From Candidatus Asgardarchaeum abyssi (GTDB lineage Archaea; Asgardarchaeota; Asgardarchaeia; Asgardarchaeales; Asgardarchaeaceae), in the NCBI GenBank assembly GCA_040225955.1, contig JBECUL010000055.1:1-12913 (forward strand): DNA of 12,913 bases, read 5' to 3'. Under the pieces are notes generated by a model. It made no database searches. It was not told the origin of the DNA and was given only the letters and a program-made list of their open reading frames with translations. The translations under genes and the position numbers were made by a program. Of this stretch, positions 170 to 1,026 are shown in pieces; within the stretch, counting starts at the first letter, position 1, and the number at the start of each line of letters is the position of its first letter.

Positions 170-416
170 GCGAGGAGATAAAGAGTTTTTAATGGATATG
201 CTTATCTCATGTGAAAAGATAATGAAATATACGGAGAATCTGTCTTATGAGGGTTTCAAGAAGAATGATATGGTTATTGATGCTGTTGTAAGAAACATTG
301 AAATTTTAGGAGAAGCTTCTAAAAGTATCTCAGATGAGTTAAAAGAGAAATATCCTGAAATTGAGTGGCGGGAGATTTCGAGAACGAGAGATAAAATAAT
401 TCATTTTTACTTTGGG

Positions 417-610
417 GTTCAGTGAATGTCCGCATTGGTGAGCGAACATCCACCTTGGGCCACATCAGCCTCAGCTCCCTCTGGGTTCATAGGGAGCAAG
501 TCATCGGTCTCGACCCCGTTCAGGGTAACCCCATAAGCCCCACATCGCAGCATCCTTTCACATTGCGGTGTCCTTTCGGTGCTTTACCCCCACCACATTC
601 GGACACTATC
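417..610 (-). ncRNA. Putative structured guide-scaffold RNA (omega-RNA-like), about 190 nt
   Basis: A 5'/3' closing helix pairs 589-607 with 425-442, with G.U pairs that form only on the minus strand. Internal hairpins include GCTCCCT-10nt-AGGGAGC (474-497) and CC-GAAA-GG. It lies just downstream of a BRE/TATA-like element. Confidence 0.5.
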
Positions 611-635
611 TTAATACTCACAAATGCTCATAAAA

Positions 636-650
636 TATTTAACTGTTTCG
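636..650 (-). promoter_or_regulatory. Archaeal BRE/TATA-like promoter inside the insertion
   Basis: The minus strand reads CGAAACAG-TTAAATA. Standard spacing puts the start near 610-612, at the beginning of the closing helix. Confidence 0.45.
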
Positions 651-1026
651 GAAGGCGTTGATCTTGATATAATATGGGATATAATAACCGTGGATATTCC
701 CTCTCTAAGGAAAAAGCTTAAGAGGATATTGAAAAAAGAGGGTTGGGAAACATGAGACTCATAACAAAGAGGTTCAATTTATTATTTATAATACTTCCTA
801 AATTAATTTAATCATAAGAAATAATAATAGATTGTGTTATTCGTGATGGTGCTCAAGACATTCTTAAAGCTTTTAGAAAAAATTGGCATAGGTCTACAAA
901 TGTAGCAGAAGACATCGATACCATAGCAAAATGAGCCTGAGGGTTAATTTACGATATCTATTATTATTGTTTTTTATTCATCCATGTTTTCAATTATGAT
1001 ATTTCTTAGTTTTTAGTCATTCTTTC

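Follow-up and report, generated by a model that had tools for sequence, protein, structure and literature searches.

A short insertion in an Asgard archaeal hepT gene resembles a gene-less IS607-family element carrying a TnpB omega-RNA scaffold

The stretch of DNA considered here (the window) comprises the 12,913 nucleotides at positions 1 to 12,913 of contig JBECUL010000055.1 from Candidatus Asgardarchaeum abyssi (assembly GCA_040225955.1), a 2.6-Mb metagenome-assembled genome in 189 contigs. Near its start, a hepT gene encoding a HepT-like/DUF86 toxin is cleanly split. Positions 153-416 match the Pfam profile PF01934 (HepT-like) over profile positions 1-96, and positions 657-752 continue the match over profile positions 97-120. 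The 5' part of the gene lies at 153-413 on the plus strand (E 3.3e-18, with the junction Gly included in the profile match), and the 3' part lies at 657-755 on the same strand. Exactly one Gly codon is shared at the junction, the net insert is 240 bp, and nothing else has been lost or duplicated, in agreement with the first-pass annotation of this DNA, which had described a 240-bp insertion splitting hepT. The practical effect in the window is that the hepT toxin gene is inactivated by the insert. The insert has a G+C content of about 54%, compared with 34% for the genome. Both junctions between hepT and the insert are spanned by DNA contigs of three public metagenome runs; thus the insert is not an assembly artefact. 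No contig with an uninterrupted copy of this hepT was found in the public DNA reads. One public contig that skips the insert comes from a diverged relative of hepT in which the codon at this position is GGT, and it does not settle whether GGG or GGC is the original codon. A comparison with window positions 381-715 located an uninterrupted diverged relative of this kind, with GGT as the Gly codon in …FGVDLSIVWD…, in a sediment metagenome (run X3, DNA) and on a metatranscriptome contig (run X11, RNA).

The insert belongs to a family of repeated elements. A BLAST search of the source genome with the insert, which had been proposed as a check in the first-pass annotation, found at least 16 full-length copies with 82-98% identity, in subfamilies of 240 bp and about 220 bp, together with further partial copies (fragments, truncated elements, and some at contig ends). 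The edges are sharp and the same in every copy, the flanks are unrelated, and the genes broken by the copies include hepT, a methyltransferase, and a permease. Neither target-site duplications nor terminal inverted repeats were found in the flanks of the 16 copies and in the ends as compared by eye in the copy alignments. The element is therefore not a MITE in the strict sense, and can be called MITE-like only as a short non-autonomous derivative. No vacant-site paralogues were found in the source genome. A DNA search of 60 other genomes of the phylum did not find the full 240-bp element, and only the scaffold part described below was matched. Only the last 130 nt or so of the insert, in minus-strand sense, are conserved in other genomes, where they are located at the 3' end of tnpB.

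The boundaries of the element are not evident from hepT. The conserved block common to all copies is 243 nt long (414-656) and consists, on the plus strand, of GGG, 237 nt, and GGC; this block can be parsed equivalently into a 240-bp element in several ways, of which 417-656 is one. Because GGG and GGC both encode Gly, hepT is uninformative as to which triplet is that of the host. The boundary test made use of the C144 copy, which interrupts a class I SAM-methyltransferase. If the triplet on the side of the left end is host sequence, the interrupted codon is GCC (Ala), while a host triplet on the side of the right end gives CCC (Pro). Elsewhere in the phylum, 27 homologues were compared, and at the junction 26 have Ala, one has Thr, and none has Pro. 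The Ala in 26 of 27 homologues indicates that the host triplet is GCC and that the element is 414-653. For the C110 copy, which would have Gly or Ala at the junction, a search of 200 genomes found no homologue, and in its only paralogue the corresponding residue is Ile; the remaining copies either give Gly under both parses or have the junction at an unconserved position. From the junction codon of the one informative copy (C144), the true boundaries are thus read as 414-653, a 240-bp mini-element on the minus strand with its left end at 653 and its right end at 414, the orientation being that of tnpB.

The element is a mobile one that encodes no protein. A 79-aa open reading frame on the plus strand was considered and rejected: its length is expected by chance (P 0.15-0.42), the differences among copies show no synonymous excess (11 synonymous, 35 non-synonymous), and the indels that distinguish the subfamilies are not multiples of three. 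On the minus strand, positions 419-553 contain a 44-codon remnant of a TnpB C-terminal tail, GVTLNGVETDDLLPMNPEGAEADVAQGG, which matches the TnpB tails at C135/C97 in the source genome and at L041, L042, L046, and L052 in relatives. The same tail ends real TnpB genes, partial at C135/C97 and full-length (370-474 aa) elsewhere in the phylum, and the genes bearing it were confirmed as TnpB by Pfam (PF07282 and PF01385). The similarity is also seen in the DNA, being common to the minus strand of the insert and to the tnpB 3' ends of C135/C97 and of phylum-level relatives.

A covariance model, R1, was built from nine tnpB-linked 3' regions with the mini-element copies left out. It matches 414-548 on the minus strand over its full length (model positions 1-147; 130.2 bits, E 3e-37), and the match ends exactly at the element boundary. 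There are 28 R1 sites in the source genome, and all 16 mini-element copies have a full-length scaffold scoring 110-132 bits. Of 151 genomes sampled from the phylum, 19 have R1 matches. The scaffold, which ends ...CACUGAACCCC, has four helices: a long-range GGGGTY/RACCCC pairing, two small hairpins, and a 13-bp terminal hairpin. At the scaffold end, ...CUGAACCCC, the terminal CCCC pairs with the upstream GGGG. In the nine tnpB-linked sequences, covariation is seen in the four helices, with 15 of 30 pairs changed on both sides, and the GGGGTY/RACCCC helix includes a switch from T-A to C-G between clades. Paired cells amount to 92%; in shuffles the figure is 77%, and sliding the partners lowers it to 33-57%. 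None of 500 shuffles reached the observed score, although the helices were drawn by hand on the same nine sequences, which favours the structure somewhat. Owing to length variation in the terminal hairpin, RNAalifold recovered no more than 13 pairs from a MAFFT alignment of all relatives. The folding energy of the minus strand is -80.8 kcal/mol (z -3.2 relative to shuffled sequences), while the plus strand has a z of +0.09. Considered together, the tail remnant, the tnpB-linked R1 match, the covariation, and the asymmetry in folding indicate that the minus strand of the insert is the sense strand of a TnpB omega-RNA scaffold composed of the tnpB 3' tail and the right end.

Rfam 15 does not include this RNA: no match over the window reached a gathering score, and a search of 380-700 in E-value mode returned two chance-level snoRNA matches (E 3.8 and 8.7). 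Upstream of the scaffold, a variable segment at 549-610 on the minus strand, delimited from the fold and the copy alignment, contains a GUGUCC/GGACAC hairpin and is partly deleted in the subfamily of about 220 bp. The scaffold is modestly more conserved among copies than this segment, with a nucleotide diversity of 0.055-0.060 compared with 0.083-0.139. Within the family, stem variants read on the sense strand include 10 G-U and 4 A-C pairs, a difference that is not significant, and one compensatory double change. At 455-500 on the minus strand, GAUGA and CUGA boxes flank a GCUCCC/GGGAGC hairpin; the arrangement has the look of a K-turn and is a possible L7Ae site. In relatives, the GAUGA box is nearly invariant and the CUGA box is variable. 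Some genomes of the phylum have many R1 matches, with at least 20 in G081 (L086-L095) and 16 in G075. In G081 the copies have 735 bp or more in common on the upstream side of the right end; these are longer elements, probably bearing tnpB, and not mini-elements. Much of what the first-pass annotation had proposed from the letters of the window is borne out by these results: a protein-free mobile cassette, an omega-type RNA on the minus strand that abuts the element edge (the R1 match ends at 414) and would take its guide from the flank, and the existence of longer tnpB-linked elements with the same right end, which were found at C135/C97 and in relatives within the phylum.

The left end (611-653, minus strand) contains TTCC-GAAACAG (643-653), the TATA-like sequence TTAAATAT (635-642), and, in plus-strand reading, a pair of CTCAYAAA repeats (618-625 and 627-634). 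In the copy alignment it is the most invariant stretch over the 16 copies, and the TATA-like box itself is invariant. A promoter role for this box is proposed, but TATA-like words are common in a genome of 34% G+C. Immediately beyond the left end is the host target triplet GCC (654-656, minus strand), which on the plus strand reads GGC, a Gly codon of hepT. The triplet is GCC or GCT at 16 of 16 copies, and the base preceding it is C, T, or A in these copies but never G. In 15 of the 16 copies, CC is the final dinucleotide of both the target triplet and the right end (...CCCC), and the only register having both an equal core and the 240-bp spacing is 414-415 / 654-655. By analogy with the IS607 TAM TGGG and scaffold end UCGG, GCC is a candidate for both the TnpA target and the core of the TnpB TAM, the putative motif, (H)GCC, abutting the left end on its 5' side.

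The predicted guide, AAAGUAAAAAUGAAUUAUUU, is antisense hepT sequence at 394-413 on the minus strand. It is assigned by position only, as the sequence directly 3' of the scaffold end, and its length is set by analogy with published TnpB systems. From 413 downwards the predicted guide reads AAAGUAAAAAUGAAUU, and the expected vacant site is ...ATCAACGCC|AAAGTAAAAATG.... With boundaries at 417-656, which are 3 nt off, the first-pass annotation had arrived at the guide CCCAAAG and the TAM ATCAAC. With the boundaries taken from the methyltransferase codon test, the predicted guide starts AAAGTAAAAATG, CCC is element sequence, and the candidate motif is displaced by the same 3 nt to (H)GCC beside the left end. 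Each guide in the family matches its own vacant site only.

Evidence for the parentage of the element comes from other loci in the genome. The gene at C44:111-770 encodes a serine-recombinase TnpA with MerR-HTH and Resolvase domains, as in the IS607 type. The left-end motif GCC-N4-GAAAC-W-GTT is common to the mini-element (GCC-TTCC-GAAACAGTT), the DNA upstream of the C44 tnpA (GCC-TAAA-GAAACTGTT), and an element at C1 (GCC-TTTT-GAAACTGTT). The link between TnpA and the exact subfamily of the mini-element is made by this motif, the full-length parent being absent from the assembly. The C1 element (C1:3703-5104, or L027:413-1814) is an IS607 element consisting of a left end, an HTH-only tnpA remnant, a tnpB of 396 codons, and a right end ...GTGAACCCC. 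Its TnpB, a possible partner for the mini-element RNA, is apparently intact: reading by eye finds D, E, and D where the RuvC motifs call for them. The scaffold of the C1 element is related to that of the mini-element but more divergent (66 bits with R1). The closest tnpB relative, at C135/C97, is cut by contig ends and is about 83% identical over the core; no full-length tnpB with the exact tail or terminal hairpin of the mini-element subfamily was found in the assembly. At C135, a tnpA fragment is fused directly to the omega-RNA and right end. A second gene-less derivative, at about C53:455-651, combines a left end of the C44 type, up to and including the tnpA start codon, with an omega-RNA of the C1 type, and is flanked by ...AAA|GCC and CCCC|AGAAAG. 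The 12-mer GAAACAGTTAAA at the start of the C1 tnpB recurs in the left end of the mini-element, which hints at recombination between GAAAC-W-GTT repeats. The sequence hallmarks of IS607 are all present: there is no duplication, there are no inverted repeats, the same CC is found at both junctions, and the host motif GCC lies beside the left end. Judged by these sequence features, the parent family is IS607, with a serine recombinase, and not IS200/IS605, and the mini-element appears to retain approximately 45-60 bp of the left end and the last 135-190 nt or so of the parent, that is, the tnpB 3' tail and the right end.

The explanation that best accounts for these observations, and in which we have good confidence, is that 414-653 is a non-autonomous derivative of an IS607 element with tnpA and tnpB, formed by internal deletion and carrying an omega-RNA that takes part in the following proposed mechanism. 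A serine recombinase acting in trans, such as the C44 TnpA, would move the element, with crossover at the CC common to (H)GCC and ...CCCC. The TATA-like box TTAAATAT, located about 25 nt upstream of the structured part, would drive a minus-strand RNA of about 200 nt through the right end and into hepT, and a compatible TnpB made elsewhere would trim and bind this omega-RNA. After excision, TnpB would cut the restored site, ...CGCC|AAAGTAAAAATG..., and recombination would copy the element back, resulting in selfish retention. The targets of TnpB would then be GCC-flanked sequence matching AAAGTAAAAATGAATT, and the occupied site would be spared, since there CCCC, not GCC, precedes the target. 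Cutting of the vacant site followed by copy-back is the published model of retention (bioRxiv 10.1101/2023.11.20.567912; bioRxiv 10.1101/2023.03.14.532601). Transcription of the omega-RNA and its use by TnpB in trans are plausible; RNA coverage consists of one unstranded contig from a single library, with a depth of about 2.5, which includes the right end of the C177 copy and 85 nt of flank and in which carry-over of DNA is possible. A more general proposal is that the IS607 elements of this Asgard lineage have repeatedly shed both genes to become hyperparasites made up of a left-end promoter and an omega-RNA, with an unusual GCC motif and CC core, and selected through a TnpB in trans that restores them after excision. 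This proposal is tentative, and we would lean slightly against it at present.

If the element were instead an inert relic, it would be, or would have been, mobilised by TnpA and would have no functional guide; its omega-RNA part would persist solely as a consequence of overlapping the right end, which recombination requires. The absence of a cognate full-length TnpB from the assembly would be consistent with this, as would the weak signs of selection on the RNA within the family, the stem mismatches or stops in the tail remnant of some copies, and RNA data consisting of one thin, unstranded contig. However, 60 bp of the right end are enough for excision in the clostridial IS607 that was tested (bioRxiv 10.1101/2023.11.20.567912), while at least three independent derivatives (the 240/220-bp family, the C53 element, and the C135 fusion) keep the entire scaffold of at least 120 nt. 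That three derivatives have kept the whole scaffold, when so short an end suffices elsewhere, favours an RNA that is used. The high-scoring, full-length scaffold in 16 of 16 copies, the invariant TATA-like box, and at least one intact related TnpB in the genome also argue against a relic, which we consider unlikely but deserving of serious weight. The first-pass annotation had gone further in the other direction, suggesting that the copies act as a dispersed guide library for a protein supplied in trans. Its description of a copy family in which each member has its own flank-derived guide is upheld, and published relatives of TnpB have been domesticated as RNA-guided regulators, so that a host-domesticated set programming a TnpB or TldR-like protein for regulation or defence could be imagined. 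The guides, however, are simply the DNA beside each insertion, and since each matches its own vacant site only, a library serving the host is unlikely. The copies also break genes (hepT, the methyltransferase, and the permease), their divergence is transposon-like, and the full element was not found in the DNA search of 60 other genomes of the phylum; neither guides matching conserved distant GCC-flanked targets nor a co-occurring nuclease-dead TnpB were seen. Domestication by the host is therefore regarded as quite improbable, while the likely role of the RNA is selfish retention of the element, which is more economical than a guide library.

With respect to the mode of transposition, the first-pass annotation had allowed for an origin in either IS200/IS605 or IS607 elements, and only the latter is supported. 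An IS200/IS605-type PATE would depend for its movement on a Y1 tyrosine TnpA acting on single-stranded DNA, and some features of the insert are compatible with this: TnpB and omega-RNA occur in IS605 elements too, the insertion is 3' of a short motif without duplication, and the genome has one Y1_Tnp gene. The best of the three Y1_Tnp matches, however, is interrupted by an in-frame stop, and the remaining matches are either short or weak. Inspection by eye revealed no subterminal palindrome or hairpin in the AT-rich left end, the motif of this end sits upstream of a serine recombinase at C44, a serine-recombinase fragment is fused to the same type of right end at C135, and the same CC is found at both junctions, as expected for IS607. 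A PATE of this type is accordingly very improbable. Ends matching an IS110 or DDE element, which the first-pass annotation had named as an outcome that would contradict its proposal, were not observed, and a reading as an IS110/bridge-RNA element or DDE transposon was rejected, as there is no DDE or IS110 gene and there are no inverted repeats or duplication. Group I intron (IStron) and BHB-intron readings were also rejected, the hallmarks of both being absent and the left end being only about 45 nt long.

The best-studied comparison is with the clostridial IS607 elements and IStrons of Clostridium botulinum, which have the TAM TGGG, a scaffold end of UCGG, and a GG crossover core, and in which G versus C at position -3 avoids self-cleavage (Zedaveinyte et al., bioRxiv 10.1101/2023.11.20.567912). 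The system described here is similar in its serine-recombinase TnpA with a MerR-type HTH, the lack of duplication and inverted repeats, the same dinucleotide at target and right end, the target motif beside the left end, and an omega-RNA that overlaps the tnpB 3' end and the right end and reads into the flank. The target and scaffold end also differ at -3, with G versus C in both systems. It differs in that the mini-element is gene-less, has a CC core and (H)GCC motif in place of GG and TGGG, is found in an Asgard host, and is known here from sequence alone; its RNA matches no Rfam family.

Stand-alone mobilised omega-RNAs without effector and transposase, functional in trans, have been published (Altae-Tran et al. 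2021, as described in PMC10691335), and protein-less PATEs, too, often carry an omega-RNA gene (Meers et al., bioRxiv 10.1101/2023.03.14.532601). Like these, the mini-element is protein-less, has transposon ends and an omega-RNA, coexists with effector-encoding copies, and, as they do, would depend on TnpA and TnpB in trans. PATEs, however, are of the IS200/IS605 type with palindromic ends, and the other stand-alone omega-RNAs are bacterial IscB/TnpB loci, while the mini-element appears to be derived from IS607 and, unlike either, has a TATA-like box directly upstream of the scaffold. In archaea, ISC1733 is an IS607-like element. Its transposase is required by SMN1, a 320-bp ORF-less non-autonomous element of Sulfolobus (PMC3718332). 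Compared by description, SMN1 resembles the mini-element in being archaeal, short, and ORF-less, and, as proposed for the mini-element, it relies for its mobility on a transposase supplied in trans by an IS that carries tnpB; omega-RNA content is not described for SMN1 in PMC3718332.

Given that stand-alone trans-acting omega-RNAs were already published, the mini-element is an ordinary further example and brings no conceptual change. It adds a many-copy, natural, gene-less IS607 derivative with a complete omega-RNA in an Asgard archaeon, for which the boundary is defined and a guide and (H)GCC motif are predicted, as well as a covariation-supported RNA model that is not in Rfam. The model may be of use in annotating GC-rich "orphan structured RNAs" in these genomes. 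The family could also help in choosing a compact archaeal TnpB/omega-RNA pair for biochemistry and in asking whether TnpB in trans maintains guide-only elements.

Locally, the insert accounts for the dead hepT toxin gene. The neighbouring MNT antitoxin gene, upstream of hepT, is cut by another mobile element with terminal inverted repeats GGTAACAT...ATGTTACC, the end of which occupies positions 1-77, so that the window begins within it. At least nine genome copies of this element are of a MITE form of about 99 bp (including C24:873-971, C10:53262-53360, and C14:44376-44471), a longer form has the same ends, and the C24 copy has an 8-bp duplication. Two members, those at C14 and C24, lie 4-5 bp from the left ends of mini-IS607 copies. 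Beside the broken MNT-HepT pair, positions 1027-2292 on the minus strand encode a protein of 421 aa with a weak match to the Csx1 CARF profile (PF22230, E 0.009, below cutoff), which may be a divergent CARF/HEPN effector.
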